A stretch of 64,000 nt of DNA from Lentisphaerae bacterium GWF2_50_93. GTDB lineage: Bacteria > Verrucomicrobiota > Lentisphaeria > Victivallales > GWF2-50-93. Position numbers and translations under genes: made by a program. The DNA lies in contig MHBI01000088.1 in assembly GCA_001804815.1 (NCBI GenBank), positions 12,224 to 76,223 on the forward strand, written 5' to 3'. Below the pieces are notes generated by a model, which did not search any database, was not told the DNA's origin, and saw only the letters and a program-made list of their open reading frames with translations. Every line of letters begins with the position of its first letter. Positions within the stretch are counted from its first letter, which is position 1. Shown here piece after piece: positions 10,801 to 59,238 of this stretch.

Positions 10801-13800
10801 AATATAAATTTTGCCACACTTGCATATAACAGCGGTATTGGTGCGGCCATATATATCGATGGCGATGCGGCCGCGGCGAACAAAAGCGTTCTCACCGTCA
10901 AGAATTCCATTATCTATAATCGTGACGCCAGCACTGCAGCGGAAACGTTCACCTCGCAGATACGTCTCCCTGCTGCGGCCGAGATAACTTCAACGTTCAG
11001 CCTCACAAGCAATATCTACAGCCATTACGGCGAAGATCTTTTACAGAATCCGCTTGAACTTCCGAACAGGGGATATTCCCTCAATCTTGGCGATGTATCG
11101 GCAAACAAGCTGATCGGCGGCATAAAGGGAAGTGCGGAATCAGAGTACATAGAGAGCAATATCTACCTCGACGACACCCTCATGTATGCGGCAAACTACA
11201 GGACAATGTGCCTTGCCGTTTTGAGCCAGGACAGCATTGCCTACCTCACCGGTTCAGCCGGAATCACATACGACCAGCGCGGAAACGTGCGTGGTTCAAC
11301 ATGGACCTGGGATGCCACAAAGCAGACTTGGACCAAGGTTTCCGGAAAATATGCAATTGGAGCATTTGAGCCTCTATTCCATGTTGAAGTCGACAGCAAA
11401 GGTGATGACTCGATGCTTTGGTTTACTGGCGATGAAAATGCACATTTTTTCAATAGTGCCTCAGGCGGAACCGGCTTGACCCTGCGCGAAGCCGCATATT
11501 GGATAGATACGCGCGCAACACTCAAGACTTATACTGATCCTGTAACACTTTTAAATCCTCTTACAGGGCTTTACGACTCGCGCTATATAGGATTCGACAA
11601 GACTGTATTCGCCTCGACCAATTCCAACAATAACATCCAGCTTAACTATGGACAGATTGAAATAGGCGGACGCTGGAGCGGCACGTTATGGGACAGCTCC
11701 GGTTCCAAGAGGGATATCGCGATAGGATATCTAATCAGGGATGTTGACCAGTCAGGAAATTTGACAGCCCACGACGACACTCTCCGCGCAAAGGATGATG
11801 CAAGCAGAATTACCGTTCTTGCCGGAAACAGCGGCGGCGGAGTCAACAGATTGTTCATGAATACAGCGGGATCCGCACTGTCCGTCAACAACCTCACACT
11901 TTCAGGCGGAGTAGGCACGCAAGATGGTACACAGTTCAGTCTAGATGGATTTGGCGGCGGCATAAGAAACGATGCTGTTTTGTATTTGACGAACGTAGTC
12001 ATCCAGAACTGCTCGACTTCCGGCAGTGGAAACGTGGAAACAGCTAGTGGCGGCGGTCTTGGCGGAGGACTCTACAACTCAAGCACCGGAAATGCATATG
12101 TATATGATTCATCCTTCCTCAACAACACCGTCACCTGCATAAGGGACAATGCCAAAATATCAGTTGTAAGCTCAGGATACGGTGGTGGAATAGCCAACTG
12201 GGGCACGATTATAATTGATCGTTCACAGATCAGCGGCAACTTGGCCACTGGCGTGACAGACATAGGAGACGCAATGCTCGGCGGTGGAATCTTCAACATC
12301 GCAAATATGACCATTACGCGTTCTGAAATCACCCAGAACACCGTATCAGGCTTCACCATCGACAACGGCGGAGTGAAAGGCGCAGGAATCGCAAACTATG
12401 GCAATCTCAAAATAGCGAACAGCACTATTGCAGAGAATACCCTCAACACATTGAGCGTAGCGATCAACAGGAGCGTCGACGAGGTAACAAAACTGCCTCT
12501 TTACTCATGGGGCAGCTATGGCTCCGGAATCTTCAATTACGGAACCAGCCTTATATCCTATTATAACACGATAATGAACAATCAGACCCTCGTCAACGAT
12601 GCTTCCTTCTGGAATGCTTCAACACAGAAGGGCAACAACCTAAGTTCACTTGCCGCATTGTATAACGCGGACGGAAGCCCGTTGCAGCTTTCAAACTCGA
12701 TCCTTACCGGAAACAAGGTAGTCCTTTCCCTCAATAGTCCGGAAGTCCAGCAGAGGGCGGACATATATGTCCGCACCTTTGGCGACGTGGTCGTGGATGG
12801 CGCCGGCGATAGCGATGGCTGCCATAACGTCATCGGCGCATTCAATGGTCCTGCTCTAGAAAGCGAATATTACTACCTTCCGATTGACACACCGGCACTT
12901 CCTACTATAAATACACCGGTATATTACGAACTTACCTATAATGGCACCACGCAGGTATGGACTCCGGTTTATGAATATGTTGCTATTCTGGATGCTTCTA
13001 AACCTACTGTGGCGACAGGTTTTGACTGGTCGGACGTCGCGCTTAACAACACCGTTGGCTTCTACAGTCTCATCGCACCCAGCGCACAAGTTGATTATCT
13101 GAGCATAAATATCACCACCCCCACCAATATACCAACTTCTCTCATGCAGAACCCGTATGTGCTCGCGCATGCACTTACTACGCCGTTCATCTATGTCGAA
13201 GAACTGGACAATGGAGGAGTGGCTACCGGAAAATGGTTCAGAGTCAATGCCGATGGTACTTTCTCATACATCAACACTCTCAACCGCGCCAGCGATCCGG
13301 CAAATCTCTATGAAGGGCTTTATCTTGCAGACAAGACTACGCCGTACGCTTTCACCACCGCTAATACCGTATATTCAGTAGACGTATATACAGCTACACA
13401 ACCCGGTGCAACTACTCTCATTGACTCCGACCCCGCACATCCATACCCCGGCGGAACAGTTCCAGACACCAACAATCCGCGCTACGGGCTGGTCGACAAT
13501 CTGAACATGGAATACACCCTCGCCTACAATGGTGGAATGACACGTTCATACCGCGTCCTTGCCGGAAGCGTAGCTATGGATACGGCCTTGAACCATGGTA
13601 TTATCGTTGCAAATACGTTTGGATTTAATGATGCGACATACTACACCGACCAGCGTGGAGCGTCACGCACAAATATCGATGGCGACCCGACGAACATTGG
13701 AGCTTTCGACTCGTTGGTGGCTGAACTGGTCGTAGGTAGCACCTATGACAGCGCGACGCCGAGAACAGGATTTGATTATACCACATACACTCCCCTCTGG

Positions 13801-51704: not shown

Positions 51705-52080
51705 CACATGTTGCTGGGTGGATTTTTTCCGCTCGGGAAAAGGCAGGACGTCCCAGTCTGTCAATGAATTCGTCAGAAACGACAATGCCTGCGTGTCCGG
51801 AATAATAATATCCGAACTTGTCTACGGGGCCATTTCCAACAAGGAGGCGGACCTGATAAAGAACGTCCTGCTGGGCGTGCATGTAATGCCGATCGACAAT
51901 TCGATCCTCATGAAGGCGGGTGACATGGGTTTCTCCCTCCGCAGAAAAGGATTCACCATTCCACTGACAGATCTGGTGATCGCCGTACAATGCCTGGAAA
52001 ACAATCTGGAACTCATGACCTCGGACAAGCATTTCAGCATCATTTCAGAACATACACCGCTGAAGACACACGGAATATAA
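51688..52080 (+). CDS. vapC: Type II toxin, PIN-domain ribonuclease VapC-like (130 aa)
   Basis: The N-terminus is MRVMVDTCCWVDFF... The PIN acidic residues sit in the expected spacing: VDT, IISELVYG, PLTDLVIAV and MTSDKHF. The start could also be the ATG at 51697. The track start at 51607 is a GTG inside vapB. Confidence 0.8.
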   Translation: MRVMVDTCCWVDFFRSGKGRTSQSVNEFVRNDNACVSGIIISELVYGAISNKEADLIKNVLLGVHVMPIDNSILMKAGDMGFSLRRKGFTIPLTDLVIAVQCLENNLELMTSDKHFSIISEHTPLKTHGI

Positions 52081-52207: not shown

Positions 52208-52237
52208 CTTGCATGCTACCTTGCATGGCATTATAGT
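52208..52237 (+). promoter_or_regulatory. Candidate promoter of the padR-like gene; geometry implies a leaderless mRNA
   Basis: TTGCAT (52209-14), a 17-nt spacer, then TATAGT (52232-37). The ATG at 52245 lies 7 nt after the -10, with no SD in between. The direct repeat CTTGCATG occurs twice (52208-15 and 52220-27). Confidence 0.45.
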
Positions 52238-52244
52238 AATCTCC

Positions 52245-52577
52245 ATGATCAAGACCAATCTTTCATATTACGAAAACTGGATAGTTCAGGCCCGCAAGGG
52301 ACTCCTGGAGCTGATGATACTGAACCGTCTCAACAAGAAGGGGGAGTGCTACGGCTACGAGCTTGTCAAGGAACTTATTGCGATACCTGGCTCCGGGCTC
52401 AGCGAGGGAACGGTCTATCCGCTCCTCTCCCGTCTTCGTGTCCAGGGGCTTGTGAAGACTTCCCTGAAGGAATCGGACGAGGGGCCTGCAAGAAAATATT
52501 ATTCCCTGACCGGATCGGGGGAGGAGACGTTGAATCTTATGAATGAATACTGGAAGACTTTAATATCGGCAGAATAA
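52245..52577 (+). CDS. PadR-family transcriptional regulator (110 aa)
   Basis: The sequence is MIKTNLSYYENWIVQARKGLLELMILNRLNKKGECYGYELVKEL...SEGTVYPLLSRLRVQGLVKTSLKESDEGPARKYYSLTGSGEETL, a classic PadR wHTH signature (GYEL, G-x-x-YP-x-L-x-R-L, RKYY-x-LT). The longer track ORF from 51990 overlaps vapC and is rejected. Confidence 0.88.
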   Translation: MIKTNLSYYENWIVQARKGLLELMILNRLNKKGECYGYELVKELIAIPGSGLSEGTVYPLLSRLRVQGLVKTSLKESDEGPARKYYSLTGSGEETLNLMNEYWKTLISAE

Positions 52578-52592
52578 AAAGGGGATTAAGTT

Positions 52593-55247
52593 ATGGAATG
52601 GACTCCACAGGCCGAAGAAACGTTCGAGATACATCTTTCCGCCCATCTTCTTGAGATAAAGGACGCTGGCGCGGATCCCGAGGAGGTAAGGAGCGATCTG
52701 CGTGCGCATGTCGAGGAGACGATTGCCGAATGCGGCCGCAAGGTTGTGACCGAGGATGATGTCAGGAGGATATTCCCTGCAACCGGTAGAAAAAGCGAAA
52801 AGGCCACATCTGGAAGTACGGATGGATGCCGAAACAAGGAGACAGGCAGGAGTGAACCTGCCGAAAGAAAGAATTCAAGTGGAAAAATCCTTTCCGACAT
52901 CTCTAATATTTTTGTTGTCTGCTGCGGGATATTCCTGCCGGTAGCCGCTCTTCTCCTGGAACTGTCCACCGGAATATGCGGAGAAATGTTCTTCAATCCG
53001 ATTCCGACATTCTGGCATGTGATCATGGTCGCTTCAGTACCTATATTGAACTCCTGCATACTGTGGAGACATTTCAGAGGGACAACTCGTTCTCTCCTCT
53101 TCGATGGAATCGCCAATGGAGCAGTGATTGGTGTGAGTTTCTTCTATTCCCTCATATTTATCCCGTTGATACCGCTGGGGCTGATAGGCCTGCTAATCTT
53201 CGGTATCGGGATTCTGCCTCTGTGTCCGCTTCTCTCCTTGCTTGCCGCCATAAAGATCAGGCTGATGCTCAGGTTGAAGTCAGTCGAAAAGACCTTGAGC
53301 TTGTCAGGAGTACTGCTTCCCGCGGTCTGCGCCTTTCTGCTGTTTTTTATAATTGACCTGCCTTCATCCATAACATATTACAGTCTGGGCAAGATGAGTT
53401 CTGATGATGCAACTGCAAGGGAAAGGGAAAGAGCGCTAAGGCTTCTGAGAAATTACGGGGACGATGACATAATGCTGCGTCTCTGCTATCAGAGGGCTTC
53501 TTCGAACTTGAACATATATTCGGCCATATACAATTATTCCGGTAAAAACCTCTCGTCGGACCAGATGAGAAAGGTCTATTATCTGGTCACAGGAATACCT
53601 TTCAACGCTGTTAATCCTCCTAGGCTTAAGGGTTTGGCGAGGAGAGGTGACCGCGATTTCGACGAATGGGATCCGAATGTCGGAGGAGACTCGGTGGAAC
53701 AAAGGCTATCCAAGCTGAGTCTCGACAGTTCGCGCATAGACTCCTCGATAGATTCCGATGCAGGCGTGTCTTATACCGAGTGGACCATGGAGTTCAAGAA
53801 CGCGTCAAAATGGCAGCAGCACGAGGCGCGTGCGCAAATCGTCCTGCCTGAAGGCGGAATCGTATCGAGGCTCACGCTCTGGATTGACGGCGAGGAGAGG
53901 GAGGCCGCATTTGCAGGAAGGAATGATGTAAAGGCCGCATATAAGAAAGTCGTGAGCAGGAAACGGGATCCGGCGCTTATCACCACTAGCGGAAAGGACA
54001 AGATATTGTTCCAGTGCTTCCCAGTTCCACAGAACGGCATGATGAAGGTCAGGATCGGGATCACCTCGCCTGTGAGGATAAGCTCCGGCTCCAGGAACAA
54101 GGCTATTGTGCAGACGCCATATTTTGCCGAAAGGAACTTTGTCGTATCCAAAGATTTTTCCTCGAGCCTATGGGCCGAGTCGAAGAATCCCCTTGAACCT
54201 CCCGAAGGGTTCGAGATGAAAAAGGAGAAGATGCAGGACGGCACCTGCGCTCTCAGAGGGAATGTAAAAATCGATATGATGGAGAATTTCACACTCGCGG
54301 TATCGCGCAATCCCGAGATTGCCGGGGGCCTGGTGGAGAACAGCAAGGCCGGCACCTTTGTCATACAGGGCATCAAGGATGTTGAAAAGGTCAGGCGCGA
54401 TAAGTTTGTGGTGGTTGTAGACTGCTCCGGCGTCGTCGCGGGAAAGCTGCCCGAGATCAAGGCTGCACTTGAGGCATGCCCCGGACTCTGCTCCCTGGTT
54501 CTTGCGGGGGACAATGTATCTGTTGCCGAGAATGGCAAGGCGGTCGAATTGGCGAACAGTCTATCAAAGGGGGATTTCAACGGCGGATGCGACAATGTCC
54601 CCGCACTGGAGCGTGCCTGGGAAATCGCGGCTGAGGCCGGCAATTGCCCGATAATATGGATACACGGTCCGGCGCCTGTGGAGATTAGTTCGACCGCACC
54701 CTTGCTGCAGAGATGGGAAAGACGTCCAAACGGCCCCGACCTTTATGACGTACAGGTGCAGTCGGGTCCGAACCGCATCGCCAACCAGCTGGGTGAATCG
54801 GTGAAATATCACCATCTTCGGGGCCAGACGGATCTGAAGGCGGTCTTGGAAAACATCATTGACGGCGGCCATGTTCTGGACTGGTCCTGGAATGAAGAGG
54901 CTTCCTTCCCGGGGTCAGGAAAGTTAAAGAAGAGTTCGGACCACATCCTGCGCCTCTGGGCCGCCAGCAGGATCGATGGGCTCCTTAAAGGCAATGCAGC
55001 CGGGGCAAGGGAGAAGGCGATTAAAATAGCCGGGGACTATCACATTGTTACGCCGGTGTCCGGAGCCGTCGTACTAGAGAATGCCGCACAATACAGGGAG
55101 AGCAACCTGGAACCGGCTTCAGAGGATTCCATCCCAACAATCCCTGAGCCCGAGACTTGGATGCTTCTGGCCGCGGCCGCAATATTCCTGTTCATCATTT
55201 ACCGCATGAGGAAATGTGGGCTGGTTAAGAAAAACATTTTCGGATGA
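52593..55247 (+). CDS. 884-aa membrane protein: PadR-associated helical N-domain (HAAS/DUF1700-like), about 6 TM helices, VIT domain, vWA-like domain, C-terminal PEP-CTERM sorting signal
   Basis: It starts 16 nt after the padR stop. The N-terminus is MEWTPQAEETFEIHLSAHLLEIKDAGADPEEVRSDLRAHVEETIAECG. The hydrophobic block spans about aa 100-270. The VIT-like segment is IVSRLTLWIDGEEREAAFAGRNDVKAAYKKVV. The vWA-like segment is KFVVVVDCSGVVAGKL...IIWIHGPAP. The C-terminus is IPTIPEPETWMLLAAAAIFLFIIYRMRK (PEP codons at 55143-55151), giving PEP + TM + basic cluster. Confidence 0.8.
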   Translation: MEWTPQAEETFEIHLSAHLLEIKDAGADPEEVRSDLRAHVEETIAECGRKVVTEDDVRRIFPATGRKSEKATSGSTDGCRNKETGRSEPAERKNSSGKILSDISNIFVVCCGIFLPVAALLLELSTGICGEMFFNPIPTFWHVIMVASVPILNSCILWRHFRGTTRSLLFDGIANGAVIGVSFFYSLIFIPLIPLGLIGLLIFGIGILPLCPLLSLLAAIKIRLMLRLKSVEKTLSLSGVLLPAVCAFLLFFIIDLPSSITYYSLGKMSSDDATARERERALRLLRNYGDDDIMLRLCYQRASSNLNIYSAIYNYSGKNLSSDQMRKVYYLVTGIPFNAVNPPRLKGLARRGDRDFDEWDPNVGGDSVEQRLSKLSLDSSRIDSSIDSDAGVSYTEWTMEFKNASKWQQHEARAQIVLPEGGIVSRLTLWIDGEEREAAFAGRNDVKAAYKKVVSRKRDPALITTSGKDKILFQCFPVPQNGMMKVRIGITSPVRISSGSRNKAIVQTPYFAERNFVVSKDFSSSLWAESKNPLEPPEGFEMKKEKMQDGTCALRGNVKIDMMENFTLAVSRNPEIAGGLVENSKAGTFVIQGIKDVEKVRRDKFVVVVDCSGVVAGKLPEIKAALEACPGLCSLVLAGDNVSVAENGKAVELANSLSKGDFNGGCDNVPALERAWEIAAEAGNCPIIWIHGPAPVEISSTAPLLQRWERRPNGPDLYDVQVQSGPNRIANQLGESVKYHHLRGQTDLKAVLENIIDGGHVLDWSWNEEASFPGSGKLKKSSDHILRLWAASRIDGLLKGNAAGAREKAIKIAGDYHIVTPVSGAVVLENAAQYRESNLEPASEDSIPTIPEPETWMLLAAAAIFLFIIYRMRKCGLVKKNIFG

Positions 55248-56061
55248 CTGCGTGGCCGCATTGCTCCTAGCCGCGTTTTATCCTGTCTGGAAATACTGCG
55301 GGAGCCGCTGGATCGCAAATGATGAAACGGCCGCCTGCCTGCCTCTGCTGCTGATCCTTTTCATGTGGATCAGGAGGATGTACGGCATTGGGCGCCTTGG
55401 AGCTGGTGAGGACGCTGCGCACAGACTGGGAAGAGCGGACTTTCTAGCCATGTCGGCCATGCTCGGGATATATATTCTGGCATATCACCATACCTTCATG
55501 CTGCTGCGCGCGATTATCGCCTTGACGGTTCTGGGCATAGTATTCAGCAGGAGGCTCAAGGGCAGGATTATCGATGTATCAGTCTTCGGACTGCTTTTTC
55601 TGTCGCTGCCTGCGATACCCACCGCCCAGTTCTACTTCGGATATCCGCTGCGCGTGATAGTTGCCAAATCCTCGTCGGCGCTGCTCGGGATGCTCAGTTA
55701 TGACGTATCTTCATCAGGAACTTCGATCTTCTGGGACGGGAAATGCATTTCCGTCGATGCCCCGTGCAGCGGGATACGAATGCTTTATGCCGGAGTTCTC
55801 CTTGTCCTTCTGCTAGGCTATTTCCGCAATCTTTCATTAAAGGGATTGTGCCTGCTGGCGCTTGCCGGGACAGTGGCTGTCATCTTCGGCAATGTCGTCC
55901 GCGCCACAGTCCTTTTCTTCACGGAGACAGGCATTGTCGCATTTGGCAGGGATTTCCTGCACACAGCCATAGGCATATCGGTCTTCATCTGGATTGCAGC
56001 TGGAATCTACGTCATTTCAGAATGGCTCGTAAAAAGGAGAGAAACGTGCATTGCCGTATGA
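55216..56061 (+). CDS. Exosortase-family transpeptidase (polytopic membrane protein, 281 aa)
   Basis: The start is a GTG at 55216 and is uncertain; it overlaps the upstream gene by 32 nt. The protein has multiple TM helices. The exosortase-type N-terminal region is WIANDETAACLPLLLILFMWIRR. The catalytic-Cys motif is VDAPCSGIRMLYAG (compare the conserved CSG[LI]R of EpsH-type exosortases). Confidence 0.75.
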   Translation: MGWLRKTFSDDCVAALLLAAFYPVWKYCGSRWIANDETAACLPLLLILFMWIRRMYGIGRLGAGEDAAHRLGRADFLAMSAMLGIYILAYHHTFMLLRAIIALTVLGIVFSRRLKGRIIDVSVFGLLFLSLPAIPTAQFYFGYPLRVIVAKSSSALLGMLSYDVSSSGTSIFWDGKCISVDAPCSGIRMLYAGVLLVLLLGYFRNLSLKGLCLLALAGTVAVIFGNVVRATVLFFTETGIVAFGRDFLHTAIGISVFIWIAAGIYVISEWLVKRRETCIAV

Positions 56062-56564
56062 CATTTGTCTTTTTCTGCATCATCGCGGCCGTCATTCCGC
56101 TGCTAGATGACGGAAGAAACCTGGAAAATCCAGCGGTAGATGGCGATATTGTCTTCCCCGAAGGAATTGAGATTGGAACGATGTCGGAAATAGGGCTTTC
56201 GTCGAAGGAAAAGATTTTCTTCAGCAAATTTCCCGGGAAAGCCGCCAAATTCAGCGATGGAACACGCACGATGATATTGAGGACCGTCAACACTCCCACT
56301 CGCCTCCTTCATCCCGCAATGGAGTGCTTCAGGGGAATGGGATATTCGACCTCCGGAAACGGAATCCAGCTGGACTCGCGGAAAAGGATGTGGGGGGTGT
56401 TTTCTGCTTCACATCCAGATGGCGGAGCATATAGGGTCAGGGAGATAGTCTTTGATTCCGAAGGGAAGTCATGGAGCGACATCTCTGCCTGGTACTGGAA
56501 TGCCGAGTTTTCTCTCAGTACCGGTCCGTGGACTTCGGTTTTAACGGTTGAAAAGGTCGAATGA
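56058..56564 (+). CDS. EpsI-like exosortase-associated protein (168 aa, N-terminal membrane anchor)
   Basis: The ATG at 56058 overlaps the exosortase TGA (ATGA at 56058-61). The anchor is MTFVFFCIIAAVIPLL. The segment LLHPAMECFRGMGY resembles the H-x-P-x-x-C-[LF]-x-G-x-G-[WY] core of the EpsI family. The track's longer N-terminal extension from 55743 lies inside the exosortase gene. Confidence 0.55.
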   Translation: MTFVFFCIIAAVIPLLDDGRNLENPAVDGDIVFPEGIEIGTMSEIGLSSKEKIFFSKFPGKAAKFSDGTRTMILRTVNTPTRLLHPAMECFRGMGYSTSGNGIQLDSRKRMWGVFSASHPDGGAYRVREIVFDSEGKSWSDISAWYWNAEFSLSTGPWTSVLTVEKVE

Positions 56565-56698
56565 CCGCTCCACCTGAGCCAGGAAACCCCTGGGTCTTTC
56601 AGGTATTATTCCCGGCTCCAGACTGGATTCCGGCTTTTAGCGTCGGAACAACGAAACGGATCCTCGGAGACCAGCAATTGCAGGACATGCCAATCAAT

Positions 56699-56803
56699 TT
56701 CCACAATATGGAAATTATTGCCTTATATTTCCATACCGTGTTGACCACAGCTCCTTATAGGCGTATAATTTCCTTATTAAAGAATTATTTCCACAATATG
56801 GAA
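56699..56803 (+). promoter_or_regulatory. Strong sigma70-type promoter bracketed by two identical TTCCACAATATGGAA sites
   Basis: TTGACC (56741-46), a 17-nt spacer, then TATAAT (56764-69). The 17-mer atttccacaatatggaa occurs at 56697-56713 and 56787-56803, 90 bp apart. Its core is the inverted repeat TTCCA-N5-TGGAA. One site is upstream of the -35 and one is in the early transcribed region. Confidence 0.6.
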
Positions 56804-56805
56804 TA

Positions 56806-56860
56806 AAGTATGTCGGGTTTTAACCCGGCGATTAATTGGCGGTTTAAAAACCGCCATACT
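56806..56860 (+). repeat. Twin-hairpin REP-like module in the 5' leader of the fused Fe-S gene
   Basis: aagtatgtcgggttttaacccggcgattaattggcggtttaaaaaccgccatact is the same module as in 2037-2097 and 5686-5746, but here it lacks the flanking GTTAAGCTGG inverted repeats. It ends 1 nt before the AAAGGAGA RBS. Confidence 0.85.
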
Positions 56861-56874
56861 AAAGGAGAAATGCC

Positions 56875-59238
56875 ATGAACAGGATACTGACAGAGAAGAT
56901 AAAGGCTGAAATGCTGAACTTTGGAATGGATCTTGTAGGATTCGGCCCGGTCGACAGATGGAAGAACGCCCCTTATCTGCTCAGCCCGCAGGCCATCCTG
57001 CCTGAGGCGAAGACGGTGGTCGTCGGGGCGATCCATATTACCGACACCTGGTCTGAGATGGGGGGCGAACCCGAACCCCAGGACCGCAGTCCCGGCGGCT
57101 GGATGGACCAGAACGGCCTGCTTGACAGGACCGCCTACCGGATCGTCCGCATGCTGAACGACCACGGGCAGCAGGCGATCGGCGTGGCAAGCTCAAATAT
57201 CTGGCGCTACCGCCAGTACGAAGGGATTCCCAGCCTCTTTGCTCCGGATCTTTCGCACATTCACGCGGCGACGGCAGCCGGTCTTGCTGAAATCGGCTGG
57301 TGCGGCCTGGCGATCACCCCGGAATTCGGCAGCCGCTGCCGTTTCATCTCGATAGTAACCGATGCCGAACTTGTGCCGACCCCGATGTACGACGGACCTA
57401 AGCTCTGCGACATGTGCGGCGAATGCATAAGCCACTGTCCGTCACTCGCAATGAAAAAGGACATGAACACCAAGGCACCCCATGTAGTCGAGATCGGCGG
57501 CAAGACCTACAAATACGCGAACAAGAACATCTGGCGCTGCGCCTGGGCTGAACACTTCAATCTGGACCTGAACTCCGATACCTTGAAGAAGGAAGCCCAT
57601 ATTGACGAAAAGACCATCATAAATGAACTCCATACCAAAGGGGTGCGTGGACATGAACGCGGCGTCTGCCAGAAATACTGCGTCCCTCCGCACCTGCGGA
57701 CAGACAAGAAGAGTTTCGGACGCGACAAGATGATTGCGCAGAACCGCATCAACCAGCGCTATCCTGATTCAATGCCTACTCTCAGGAAAATGCGCGACGA
57801 CGTGATCGCACGTGCAGTGGAGCTTGGGATTGACATTGCCGCTGTGGCGCCGCTCCAGCCGGATACCGATGCCGGACGGCTTGCGCTGAAGGATGCGCCC
57901 GGAGTACGCACAGTATTTTCGTTCGCATACCGGATCCCGCCGGAAGCCAGGAGGAAAGACCTTCCCCAGAAGTGCGGAGAGGCATACGGTTATCCTGTTT
58001 CCTTGAAAATGCATCAGGCGCTCCTGCGTCTTGCCAGGATGATCGAAGATTATGGCTACAGTGCCGCATCATATACCGAATCATGGCAGGAAAGCGCCCC
58101 TGCCCTGGCCGCGATGACCGATCTCGGTAAAATCGAAAACGGCGAGTTCATCACACCGGAATTCGGACGCAACCAGTTCATCGGCGCAATAACGACCAGC
58201 GCGCCAGTGGATGCGTCGAACCGTCTTTCCGGCAAGCTTGAAATAGACCGTCCTTCAAAACTTGAGGGCAAAGCGCTACGACGGAAACTCGAGGTTATAG
58301 CTGAAAACAATCTTATCAGCATGTTCGGAGTTTCTCCTGCCGTCCGCCTTGATCCGGTGGCGGATCAGCTGAAGAAGTCTGTTGATGAAAAACAGCTTGG
58401 CAAACGGATCATCGACGGCAACCGCAAACTTTCCTATCACGGGGCATTCATTCCGGAAATTACCGAGGAAGATGTAAAAATCAGGAAACCTTCGGACTTG
58501 ATGAAAGGGGCGAAGTCGGTCATCGTTATGGGAATGCATTACCCCGACGAGTTGATCCGCAACGCAGGTCTTGAAAAAAGCCAGCAGATCGGATGTTATA
58601 ACTTCCACCAGTACCAGACACGCTGGGAACTGTCTTTTGCCGCACTTGAACTTGCCAACTACCTTGACAAGATGGGCTACAAGTCCATGATCACCGAAAA
58701 CCTGCTCGGGATAGGATCCTATACCGACTCGCCGCGCGGTCCGTTGCCGGACATGCGGTGCAATGCTCTTGAAGCGGTTGCGGCTGGATTGGGCGAGATA
58801 GGCGGCAGCGGAGCTCTTCTGACGAAGGCGCATGGCCCGCATCAGCGCTGCATCTGCATCGTCACCGATGCGGAATTGAATTACGATGAGCCGTTGGAAG
58901 CCGCCGGCGTCTGCCGCAAATGCAAGGTCTGCGCGGAGAAATGCCCGATGGACGCCATCACCGGCAAGAGCATGAAGCTTGATGTAGGCGGGTTGACGGT
59001 GGATTATCCGTTGATTCCGCGCCATCGCTGCGACTGGGCGAAGCGCTACAGCCTCCATCCGGATGAAGGTCCGGCGCTGATCGGCAACAATACCCGTGCG
59101 GAAATCCCTAAGGGTGAAATCAGCATCGAACAGCTGGCAGAAGGATGCAAGGCCAAGGATCCGATCATGAAGTCCAGGACCTGCATACTGGAGCCCTGCC
59201 TGCGGAACTGTCCGGCGGGAATGCGCGCCGGCAAGTAG
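56875..59238 (+). CDS. Tandem-fused double QueG/RdhA-superfamily-like iron-sulfur protein (787 aa)
   Basis: Module 1 has NFGMDLVGFGPVDRW...EAKTVVVGA, AAGLAEIGWCGLAITPEFGSRCRFISIVTDAEL and CDMCGECISHCPSLAM. Module 2 has ELGIDIAAVAPL..., GAKSVIVMGM, AAGLGEIGGSGALLTKAHGPHQRCICIVTDAEL and CRKCKVCAEKCPMDAI, plus CILEPCLRNCP. Confidence 0.6.
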   Translation: MNRILTEKIKAEMLNFGMDLVGFGPVDRWKNAPYLLSPQAILPEAKTVVVGAIHITDTWSEMGGEPEPQDRSPGGWMDQNGLLDRTAYRIVRMLNDHGQQAIGVASSNIWRYRQYEGIPSLFAPDLSHIHAATAAGLAEIGWCGLAITPEFGSRCRFISIVTDAELVPTPMYDGPKLCDMCGECISHCPSLAMKKDMNTKAPHVVEIGGKTYKYANKNIWRCAWAEHFNLDLNSDTLKKEAHIDEKTIINELHTKGVRGHERGVCQKYCVPPHLRTDKKSFGRDKMIAQNRINQRYPDSMPTLRKMRDDVIARAVELGIDIAAVAPLQPDTDAGRLALKDAPGVRTVFSFAYRIPPEARRKDLPQKCGEAYGYPVSLKMHQALLRLARMIEDYGYSAASYTESWQESAPALAAMTDLGKIENGEFITPEFGRNQFIGAITTSAPVDASNRLSGKLEIDRPSKLEGKALRRKLEVIAENNLISMFGVSPAVRLDPVADQLKKSVDEKQLGKRIIDGNRKLSYHGAFIPEITEEDVKIRKPSDLMKGAKSVIVMGMHYPDELIRNAGLEKSQQIGCYNFHQYQTRWELSFAALELANYLDKMGYKSMITENLLGIGSYTDSPRGPLPDMRCNALEAVAAGLGEIGGSGALLTKAHGPHQRCICIVTDAELNYDEPLEAAGVCRKCKVCAEKCPMDAITGKSMKLDVGGLTVDYPLIPRHRCDWAKRYSLHPDEGPALIGNNTRAEIPKGEISIEQLAEGCKAKDPIMKSRTCILEPCLRNCPAGMRAGK

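Follow-up and report, generated by a model that had tools for sequence, protein, structure and literature searches.

A PadR regulator, a HAAS-type VIT-vWA membrane protein and a dedicated exosortase in one apparent operon of a Lentisphaeria bacterium

Why should a PadR transcription regulator, a large membrane protein with a PEP-CTERM sorting signal and the exosortase expected to process that protein be encoded side by side? The question is raised by four consecutive genes in a 64,000-nt stretch of contig MHBI01000088.1 of Lentisphaerae bacterium GWF2_50_93 (positions 12,224 to 76,223, forward strand), which we refer to as the window. In order, they encode a PadR regulator, a protein of 884 amino acids (aa), an exosortase and a small protein that we call gene 4. 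An earlier note on this DNA had read the 884-aa protein both as the membrane partner of PadR and as an exosortase substrate, and had proposed that the two roles are coupled. The reading that we favour, with a probability of roughly 0.6, is that the four genes are one operon, in which an autoregulated HAAS-PadR dyad has been joined to a VIT-vWA surface protein and its dedicated exosortase. The order of the genes, their domain architecture, a strict co-occurrence of PadR with the HAAS domain, a conserved operator-like element and the linkage of exosortase, gene 4 and substrate are all observed.

Co-occurrence of PadR and the HAAS-type domain

The 884-aa protein belongs to a large family. The first search returned more than 812 proteins, and relatives are present in 485 species genomes. 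The family has two forms, a long one of ~870-895 aa that carries HAAS and a short one of ~800-825 aa that starts at the transmembrane (TM) block. HAAS is a three-helix domain that always neighbours a standalone PadR and lies N-terminal to multi-TM sensors, and a GxP motif at its third helix has been proposed as the contact groove (Ravi, Aravind and colleagues, mSystems 2024, PMC11237479).

We surveyed 80 genomic loci with domain-specific profiles, 78 of which were testable for both PadR and HAAS. In the raw counts, PadR lay immediately upstream on the same strand in 49/50 HAAS-bearing forms and in 1/28 HAAS-less forms, which gave a Fisher p of ~1e-18 for co-occurrence, uncorrected for phylogeny. 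The single apparent case of PadR without HAAS, locus L032, was rejected because a frameshift lies between its HAAS and its TM body. After this correction, PadR is directly upstream of 50 of the 51 HAAS-bearing proteins and of none of the 27 HAAS-less ones, which bears out the claim that the 884-aa protein partners the neighbouring PadR by way of its N-terminal domain. The only true HAAS-bearing locus without padR is L023 (L023:5500-6000), where a GNAT-like acetyltransferase gene ends ~260 nt upstream. The L023 sensor differs very little from the sensors of L009, L010 and L078, all of which have padR, and the locus may reflect a deletion, a rearrangement or a chimeric assembly. In a rough neighbour-joining tree, poorly resolved at depth, complete modules fall between HAAS-less relatives, as L005 does beside L026. 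Since such close relatives differ in both features, PadR and HAAS appear to have been gained or lost together.

The exosortase and gene 4 lie directly downstream of 7/40 HAAS-bearing but 21/24 HAAS-less proteins, and an exosortase is adjacent to its substrate in 28/64 genome loci. By these adjacency counts, the exosortase and gene 4 form a sub-module separate from PadR/HAAS. Complete four-gene modules occur at L004, L005, L007, L025, L033, L070, L075 and probably L072, with further ones at L101 and L107 in an exosortase-centred sample of 80 metagenome loci and on the Elusimicrobia contig of relative P0007. These modules number 11 or more, at distinct loci of Planctomycetota, Verrucomicrobiota, Elusimicrobia, Lentisphaeria and unclassified metagenome-assembled genomes (MAGs). 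Conservation of padR beside exosortase/VIT pairs in other genomes, on which the earlier note had staked its proposal, was thus found, for some of the pairs. Precomputed Pfam annotations independently show all three architectures.

We modelled the 884-aa protein with AlphaFold2 (AF2) from a 30-sequence alignment, at a predicted local distance difference test score (pLDDT) of 83 and a predicted template modelling score (pTM) of 0.72. In the model, a three-helix unit (aa 5-60), a disordered linker (64-94), the TM block (~96-269) and a short helical juxtamembrane region are followed by a beta-rich and then alpha/beta region (aa ~375-830) and a final TM helix (853-874). The HAAS-type domain occupies aa 1-63, ahead of the linker and the TM block, and its helices (5-24, 29-46 and 54-60) have pLDDT values above 90. 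The first ~70 residues of the window protein gave no match to PF22564, DUF1700 or NCBIfam models, even at permissive thresholds (E<=1 for PF22564), and a profile of the HAAS N-termini retrieved from PDB sequences designed helical proteins only, which was uninformative. PF22564 is, however, matched by 22/35 family N-termini, with a best E value of 2.9e-9 and with P0081 reaching 32.8 bits against a cutoff of 27. Because the window N terminus is homologous to family N-termini that match PF22564, being 25-46% identical to family N-termini, we count it as HAAS through its family only. It reads as a divergent member of the HAAS-bearing family, with G65-R66-K67 at the position of the GxP motif that 56/78 relatives keep. 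The PadR-partner domain proposed in the earlier note thus stands through the family, the three-helix fold and the adjacent PadR, whereas a direct HAAS match in the window protein itself was not obtained; at the level of the family, the N-terminal domain does match a PadR-partner family.

The apparent operon, its operator-like palindrome and its sorting machinery

The four genes are tightly packed on the plus strand, as the earlier note had described, and have gene calls in three public records of the same contig, which comes from a groundwater Lentisphaeria MAG (GCA_003516325.1, DPCG01000084.1). Several boundaries shift slightly. A start of padR at 52208 corresponds to the in-frame TTG at 52209, and since that TTG falls inside the promoter and operator, the ATG at 52245 is to be preferred. 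Between padR and the 884-aa gene lie 15 nt (52578-52592) and not 16 nt, a tight spacer that holds the Shine-Dalgarno-like motif AAGGGGA. The 32-nt overlap between the second and third genes is obtained with the GTG at 55216 that is called by NCBI, whereas the GTG at 55252, the start in two other gene callers, leaves a 4-nt gap; the two genes are tightly coupled whichever GTG is chosen. Genes three and four overlap exactly as ATGA at 56058-56061. A weak terminator-like hairpin downstream of gene 4 is probably the operon end, and a consensus scan gave the following gene a strong promoter-like site of its own, at 56741-56769. With tight junctions, a 3' hairpin and a separate promoter-like site for the next gene, the four genes have the appearance of one operon.

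PadR itself scores 67 bits against PF03551, above the Pfam gathering threshold (cutoff 27), and is a standalone winged-helix regulator. Between the -10 box of the putative operon promoter and the padR ATG lie 7 nt, which would make the padR transcript leaderless or almost leaderless. The -35 box, TTGCAT, agrees with the consensus at 3/6 positions, and a generic scan did not list the promoter at 52209-52237; its position agrees with that of the TTGACA...TAnnnT promoters found upstream of padR at other loci. Within this promoter lies a palindrome that matches TACCTTG-N5-CAAGGTA at 11/14 positions. Across the window there are 3 such matches against 1.5 expected, which is not significant alone, and the evidential weight of the window copy comes from the conservation of the element across loci. 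Matches at 11/14 or more positions occur upstream of padR in 24/48 loci (background 1.9%) and at 12/14 or more in 17/48 (background 0.3%). These loci come from several phyla, the spacer is 5 nt throughout, the distance to the padR start is mostly 21-48 nt, and the element lies between a TTGACA-like -35 box and the padR start codon. A search of the 64-kb window for a second site, and hence a regulon, found none that was convincing. The overlap of palindrome and promoter points to padR autoregulation. In Listeria, the PadR regulator LltR autorepresses its own operon ~150-fold, and that operon also encodes the DUF1700 multi-TM protein Lmo0600 (PMC6624303). A palindrome at the operon promoter fits autorepression here too, which for LltR has experimental proof (PMC6624303).

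At loci with an extra gene 5' of padR, the palindrome lies upstream of that extra gene instead. In many Verrucomicrobiota loci, a gene for a 220-270-aa multi-TM protein is found directly 5' of padR, with overlapping stop and start codons. No Pfam family and no exosortase motif was found in this protein, and in these Verrucomicrobiota lineages it may act as an additional, third partner in the dyad.

Behind the HAAS-type domain, the 884-aa protein enters the membrane. The earlier note had counted about six TM helices; a multi-TM region is present, and it is most simply read as five N-terminal passes, with a further TM helix at the C terminus. The AF2 helices of the block span aa 96-126, 140-162, 168-188, 190-203/207-233 and 241-269, and K/R-rich loops lie at aa 158-170 and 222-236. 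Hydropathy and these basic loops suggest a five-pass, N-in topology in which the ectodomain is extracytoplasmic and the basic tail at the C terminus is cytoplasmic. Invariant residues of the block (G112, E123 inside TM1, P136 in the FFDPIPT loop, P150, P191, G206 and P212) suggest that it does more than anchor the protein.

The VIT domain is matched by PF08487 (42.5 bits, cutoff 26.5) and the vWA domain is recognised by fold similarity, in keeping with the VIT and vWA-like domains that had been claimed; the relative P0005 scores 26.8 bits with VWA_2, just below the 27-bit cutoff. The top PDB match in Foldseek was ITIH1 (inter-alpha-inhibitor heavy chain 1, 6FPY; E=1e-19 over ~590 columns), and we therefore regard the ectodomain as an ITIH-like VIT-vWA unit. 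The DxSxS motif of the metal ion-dependent adhesion site (MIDAS) is not intact, with D610-C-S-G-V in the window; family-wide, it varies and is degenerate in most members.

The C-terminal PEP-CTERM signal, IPTIPEPETW followed by a hydrophobic stretch and YRMRK, can be read in the protein as described earlier. Its scores in the window protein fall below the cutoffs (PF07589 15.6-17.5 against 20.7; TIGR02595 12.8 against 16), whereas the orthologues P0010 (25.0) and P0081 (21.9) exceed the PF07589 cutoff. The architecture of PEP motif, TM helix and basic cluster is present at the C terminus of 120/120 relatives, and no other open reading frame (ORF) in the window carries such a signal, which confirms the earlier statement. 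A family-wide comparison (L004-L083) separated two flavours of the signal. With an exosortase next to the substrate (35 loci), PEP is followed by E or D in 34/35, with the motif PT[IV]PEP-E as in the window; where none is adjacent (36 loci), E follows PEP in 3/36 and the residue is otherwise G, S, T or A. The universal signal and the exosortase-adjacent flavour of the window copy are both consistent with the 884-aa protein being an exosortase substrate, as the earlier note had predicted. The flavour is a possible specificity determinant for the exosortase clade, and another exosortase has apparently taken over the PadR/HAAS forms that have no private one. Because these exosortase-less forms use the other flavour, PadR/HAAS function would not be tied to a dedicated enzyme.

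The exosortase matches PF09721 (Exosortase_EpsH) with 84.6 bits (cutoff 25.7) and TIGR04178 with 43 bits (cutoff 23). The expected CSG[IL]R motif is present as CSGIR at aa 184-188, and C184 within it, R229 and H249 are invariant in 28 homologues. Cys, Arg and His form the catalytic set of archaeosortases and exosortases. The best subfamily model is XrtQ (NF012182), at 108.7 bits against a cutoff of 270, and the protein stays below every named-subfamily cutoff. XrtQ also ranks first among the models over all 28 clade homologues (best E=8.8e-58), and among exosortase::gene-4 fusions from the clade (n=10) the XrtQ score reaches a maximum of 184 bits.

In the exosortase-centred sample, the upstream neighbour belongs to the multi-TM VIT-vWA family in 31 loci. 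Beside more divergent exosortases it is a 680-810-aa PEP-CTERM VIT-vWA protein that matches TIGR03788 with 395-428 bits (cutoff 551). Exosortase loci that had seemed to be VIT-less, and thus to hold orphan exosortases, were rejected as such, since these TIGR03788-like VIT-vWA PEP-CTERM substrates are present. Judged from gene neighbourhoods, the exosortase clade appears always to be paired with one large VIT-vWA client. Its constant linkage to gene 4 and to a single large PEP-CTERM VIT-vWA substrate agrees with the description of the enzyme as dedicated. As sister branches adjoin TIGR03788-like proteins, the same type of VIT-vWA cargo seems to be served by a sortase or an exosortase depending on the lineage.

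Gene 4 follows the clade exosortase in 72/72 testable loci and is predicted to be an obligate exosortase accessory. Its product has an N-terminal membrane anchor and a compact alpha/beta domain (AF2 pLDDT 92), and the model has no structural neighbour in the PDB. An exhaustive HMMER search gave a family of 812 clusters at 50% identity, where a single-sequence search had given 2 proteins. About half of the best matches are standalone and about half are fused to the C terminus of XrtQ-like exosortases, so that a sizeable fraction of the relatives encodes exosortase and gene 4 as one protein of 440-520 aa. The sole model matched by gene 4 is XrtT, in its C-terminal part (positions 305-448). The earlier note had called this protein EpsI-like, but 0/19 members of the family match the EpsI models (Pfam EpsI/DUF3485, TIGR02914), and with no PDB neighbour either the label is unconfirmed. 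The motif on which it was based has a similar core and is spelled H-P-x-x-x-C-F-x-G-x-G-Y (H-P-A-M-E-C-F-R-G-M-G-Y) rather than beginning H-x-P-x-x-C-F.

Table 1. Features of the four-gene module in the window and related features at other loci.
Feature	Position	Strand	Remarks
Putative operon promoter	52209-52237	+	-35 TTGCAT 52209-52214, 17-nt spacer, -10 TATAGT 52232-52237; predicted from sequence
Operator-like palindrome TACCTTGCATGGCATTATA	52217-52235	+	Perfect left half; degenerate right half overlapping the -10 box
padR	52245-52577	+	110 aa; called in three public records
Substrate/sensor gene	52593-55247	+	884 aa; called in three public records
HAAS-type N-terminal domain, aa 1-63	52593-52781	+	Three helices; predicted cytoplasmic
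Multi-TM block, aa ~96-269	52878-53399	+	Most simply five membrane passes; AF2 helices and hydropathy
VIT (aa ~375-600) and vWA (aa ~605-830)	53715-55082	+	Predicted extracytoplasmic; inter-alpha-inhibitor heavy-chain type
PEP-CTERM signal, aa ~846-884	55128-55247	+	IPTIPEPETW, TM helix 853-874, basic tail YRMRKCGLVKK
Exosortase gene	55216 (or 55252)-56061	+	281 or 269 aa, by choice of GTG start
Gene 4	56058-56564	+	168 aa; called in three public records
Weak terminator-like hairpin after gene 4	56589-56603	+	Consensus scan only
Extra multi-TM gene before padR	L009:4977-5651, L019:4896-5651, L064:148-969, L077:4834-5655, others		Palindrome upstream of the gene
Exosortase-gene 4 fusions	L035:8386-9789, L047:8585-9943, L050:8274-9737; P0123, P0124, P0129, others
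TIGR03788-like neighbours of sister exosortase branches	L124:2865-4952, L137:2181-4616, L149:2507-4603, others

Proposed mechanism and its alternatives

How might the four products work together? We infer both contacts of PadR, how the 884-aa protein sits in the membrane, its cleavage and what the signal is. As a small winged-helix repressor that forms dimers, PadR would bind the palindromic operator over the operon promoter and repress its own operon. The three-helix cytoplasmic HAAS domain of the 884-aa membrane protein would bind PadR, and would hold or release it according to the state of the TM block and the ectodomain. The protein would be threaded through the membrane by about five TM helices, with its ITIH-like VIT-vWA unit facing outward. 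The private, co-transcribed exosortase would cleave the C-terminal PEP-CTERM anchor through its Cys/Arg/His active site, assisted by the membrane-anchored gene-4 accessory protein. The net effect would be feedback control of the amount of the sorted surface protein, and of the machinery that sorts it.

Several points weigh against this reading. The window N terminus has neither a direct HAAS match to a hidden Markov model nor the GxP proline that has been proposed for PadR contact; the operator copy in the window is degenerate (11/14) and not significant alone, and the -35 box is weak; the loci share ancestry, which inflates the co-occurrence statistics; and the N-in topology depends on the positive-inside rule, on hydropathy and on taking the helices of aa 190-233 as one kinked pass.

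Four other explanations were considered. One needs no external signal: HAAS would titrate PadR constitutively, and the amount of membrane-inserted protein would set expression, as a checkpoint of assembly or abundance. The translational coupling of padR to the HAAS gene across the 15-nt gap, their invariable co-transcription in that order and the position of the operator at the operon's own promoter would all suit such dosage feedback, as would the vWA MIDAS, which is degenerate in most members, the window protein among them, and thereby speaks against a ligand site of the classical metal-dependent kind. High conservation of the TM block and ectodomain, with many invariant residues, suggests more than a passive scaffold, however, and if a repressor were simply titrated by a partner expressed with it, run-away positive feedback would follow unless something else were regulated. 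We consider this account unlikely, if slightly less so than those that follow.

The second alternative is that of the earlier note, in which sorting itself is the signal. Here the fate of the PEP-CTERM anchor, whether uncleaved, cleaved or transferred, would be relayed through the TM block to HAAS, and PadR would be released or captured. The presence of padR, substrate, exosortase and accessory gene in one operon in the window and at 10 or more other loci is what makes the idea attractive. Every HAAS-bearing relative keeps a PEP-CTERM signal, from which it would follow that some exosortase always acts on the sensor, and the N-terminal membrane anchor stays after C-terminal cleavage, so processed and unprocessed states could both signal. 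If true, this would be a protein-sorting checkpoint wired to transcription that reports correct sorting of a surface protein, with a logic similar to that of the regulated proteolysis of anti-sigma factors but with an exosortase in its place. The comparative data argue in the opposite direction: 33/40 PadR/HAAS forms have no adjacent exosortase and carry the generic PEP-CTERM flavour, while 21/28 exosortase-linked forms have neither PadR nor HAAS. As most forms carry one module without the other, the regulatory and sorting functions appear to be separable. HAAS also lies ~790 residues and at least five TM passes from the cleavage site, and HAAS-PadR dyads are generally found on sensors other than sorted proteins (PMC11237479). 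We found no supporting evidence for coupling of exosortase cleavage or attachment to PadR release, and the modularity of PadR/HAAS and exosortase weakens the proposal, which we regard as quite unlikely.

It is also conceivable that PadR is an ordinary autorepressor that responds to a small molecule, that the N-terminal helical domain stands outside the signalling and that adjacency reflects co-regulation. Many PadR regulators respond to small ligands, and the HAAS domain of the window is divergent and without the GxP proline. Against this, PadR accompanies an otherwise orthologous protein only when HAAS is present (50/51 against 0/27), and the two have been gained or lost jointly between close relatives. 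Co-regulation alone is hard to accept, given that orthologues without HAAS represent cargo of the same kind and yet have no PadR. This explanation is therefore very unlikely. Chance juxtaposition or an annotation artefact, to which the weak single-sequence scores of HAAS, PEP-CTERM and operator in the window might have pointed, can be ruled out, since the four-gene order and spacing recur across many genomes of several phyla and three independent records call the genes.

The surroundings of the operon, related systems and meaning

Immediately upstream of padR, at 51450-52080, lies a pair of genes for a VapB-like antitoxin and a PIN-domain toxin, and no such VapBC-type pair is conserved beside the PadR module in other genomes. 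Downstream, an 81-aa ORF (56561-56806) overlaps the stop codon of gene 4 as ATGA and is called in the NCBI record only; as it runs across the region that holds the promoter and palindromes of the following gene, it probably does not represent a true gene. Two exact copies of a 15-nt palindrome, TTCCACAATATGGAA, lie at 56699-56713 and 56789-56803, flanking the strong promoter-like site of a 787-aa Fer4 gene (56875-59238). The palindrome recurs with 2 mismatches at 50602-50616, directly upstream of an IclR gene (50624-51364). By chance, 0.09 matches would be expected. It is probably the operator for IclR, in which case both the PadR module and the VapBC pair would sit between a regulator and its target. 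The Fer4 gene is one of three paralogues with Fer4-type cysteine motifs (48142-50201 and 56875-59238) that are interleaved with two IclR regulators and share the N-terminal pattern '...DLIG(I/F)...ER(F/W)...NP...I(F/L)PE.K(S/T)VIV'. Giant secreted-protein genes occupy 7828-46905, among them those for a 4503-aa protein (DUF4347), a 2311-aa protein (Peptidase_M6, Ig-like and PPC), three tandem RHS/YD-shell paralogues of ~1590 aa and a 987-aa YD-shell/PPC protein. The earlier note's statement that the window contains no exopolysaccharide (EPS) genes held for those parts that can be annotated; an ORF at 265-1839 (524 aa) and two ORFs within 59.5-64 kb are without assignment.

How much of this system is new? 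The dyad agrees with the published HAAS-PadR dyads (PMC11237479) in its standalone ~110-aa PadR directly upstream, its three-helix HAAS N terminus and its strict co-occurrence, and the operon, with an operator at its own promoter, is consistent with the autorepression of Listeria LltR/Lmo0600 (PMC6624303). In contrast to known HAAS-PadR dyads, its sensor is a multi-TM VIT-vWA protein with a terminal PEP-CTERM signal and, in the window, is co-transcribed with an exosortase, and the window copy is divergent, with no direct PF22564 match and with G-R-K in place of GxP. The paper that describes the dyads makes no mention of exosortase, PEP-CTERM, the VIT domain or vWA (PMC11237479).

On the sorting side, the XrtN system (TIGR04476/TIGR04477) has the same logic of one substrate and one exosortase, and its substrate likewise combines an N-terminal multi-TM region, VIT and a C-terminal sorting signal. 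TIGR04477 is the best substrate model for the window protein, at 135.4 bits against a cutoff of 250, and exosortase N (TIGR04476) scores 49 against 200. Both values fall well short of the cutoffs, the exosortase resembles XrtQ more closely, and a separate accessory gene is present. We know of no PadR or HAAS association of XrtN systems. The XrtK/MSEP-CTERM pair (TIGR04287/TIGR04286) shares the dedicated-exosortase logic, and aa 101-483 (TM and VIT) of the window protein are homologous to part of the MSEP-CTERM model; the score, however, is 86.7 bits against 150, the motif is IPEP rather than MSEP, and XrtK is a weak match in 5/28 exosortases.

VIT/vWA homologues that carry GlyGly-CTERM, PEP-CTERM or LPXTG signals, and the idea of dedicated systems for them, have been described (Haft and Varghese 2011, PMC3237569). 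In TIGR03788 proteins with a dedicated sortase, a VIT-vWA surface protein is likewise the single client of an adjacent sorting enzyme; these proteins differ in having no N-terminal multi-TM block and no HAAS, in their sorting enzymes and signals, and in having no associated regulator. Gene 4 resembles EpsI, as found with EpsH/XrtA-type exosortases, and the extensions of the fused exosortases XrtD, XrtO and XrtT, in being a small membrane-anchored protein that follows or is fused to an exosortase. It aligns to the C-terminal domain of XrtT, and alignments of the fusions run into the C-terminal regions of XrtO and XrtD. It differs from EpsI proper in that none of the 19 members match the EpsI models, and homology is unproven.

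The individual parts cannot be called undescribed: the HAAS-PadR dyad was published in 2024 (PMC11237479), since 2011 catalogued systems have included VIT-vWA proteins paired with a sorting enzyme of their own (PMC3237569), and NCBIfam already has XrtN/VIT, XrtK/MSEP-CTERM and sortase-target models. We found no description of a link between PadR/HAAS and an exosortase in the literature searched. The combination is real and occurs in several phyla, is made from known parts, and establishes no new mechanism.

Dedicated exosortase/VIT-vWA pairs are widespread, and the presence of PadR with a recognisable operator offers a padR-promoter reporter and a genetic switch for them. The modularity of the family provides three comparison sets, with and without PadR/HAAS, with and without a private exosortase, and with either of the two PEP-CTERM flavours. 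For the HAAS-PadR "alternative two-component system", the locus would mean an extension to a sorted cell-surface sensor, in the PVC group (Planctomycetes, Verrucomicrobia and Chlamydiae) and in Elusimicrobia, phyla that have been little studied.

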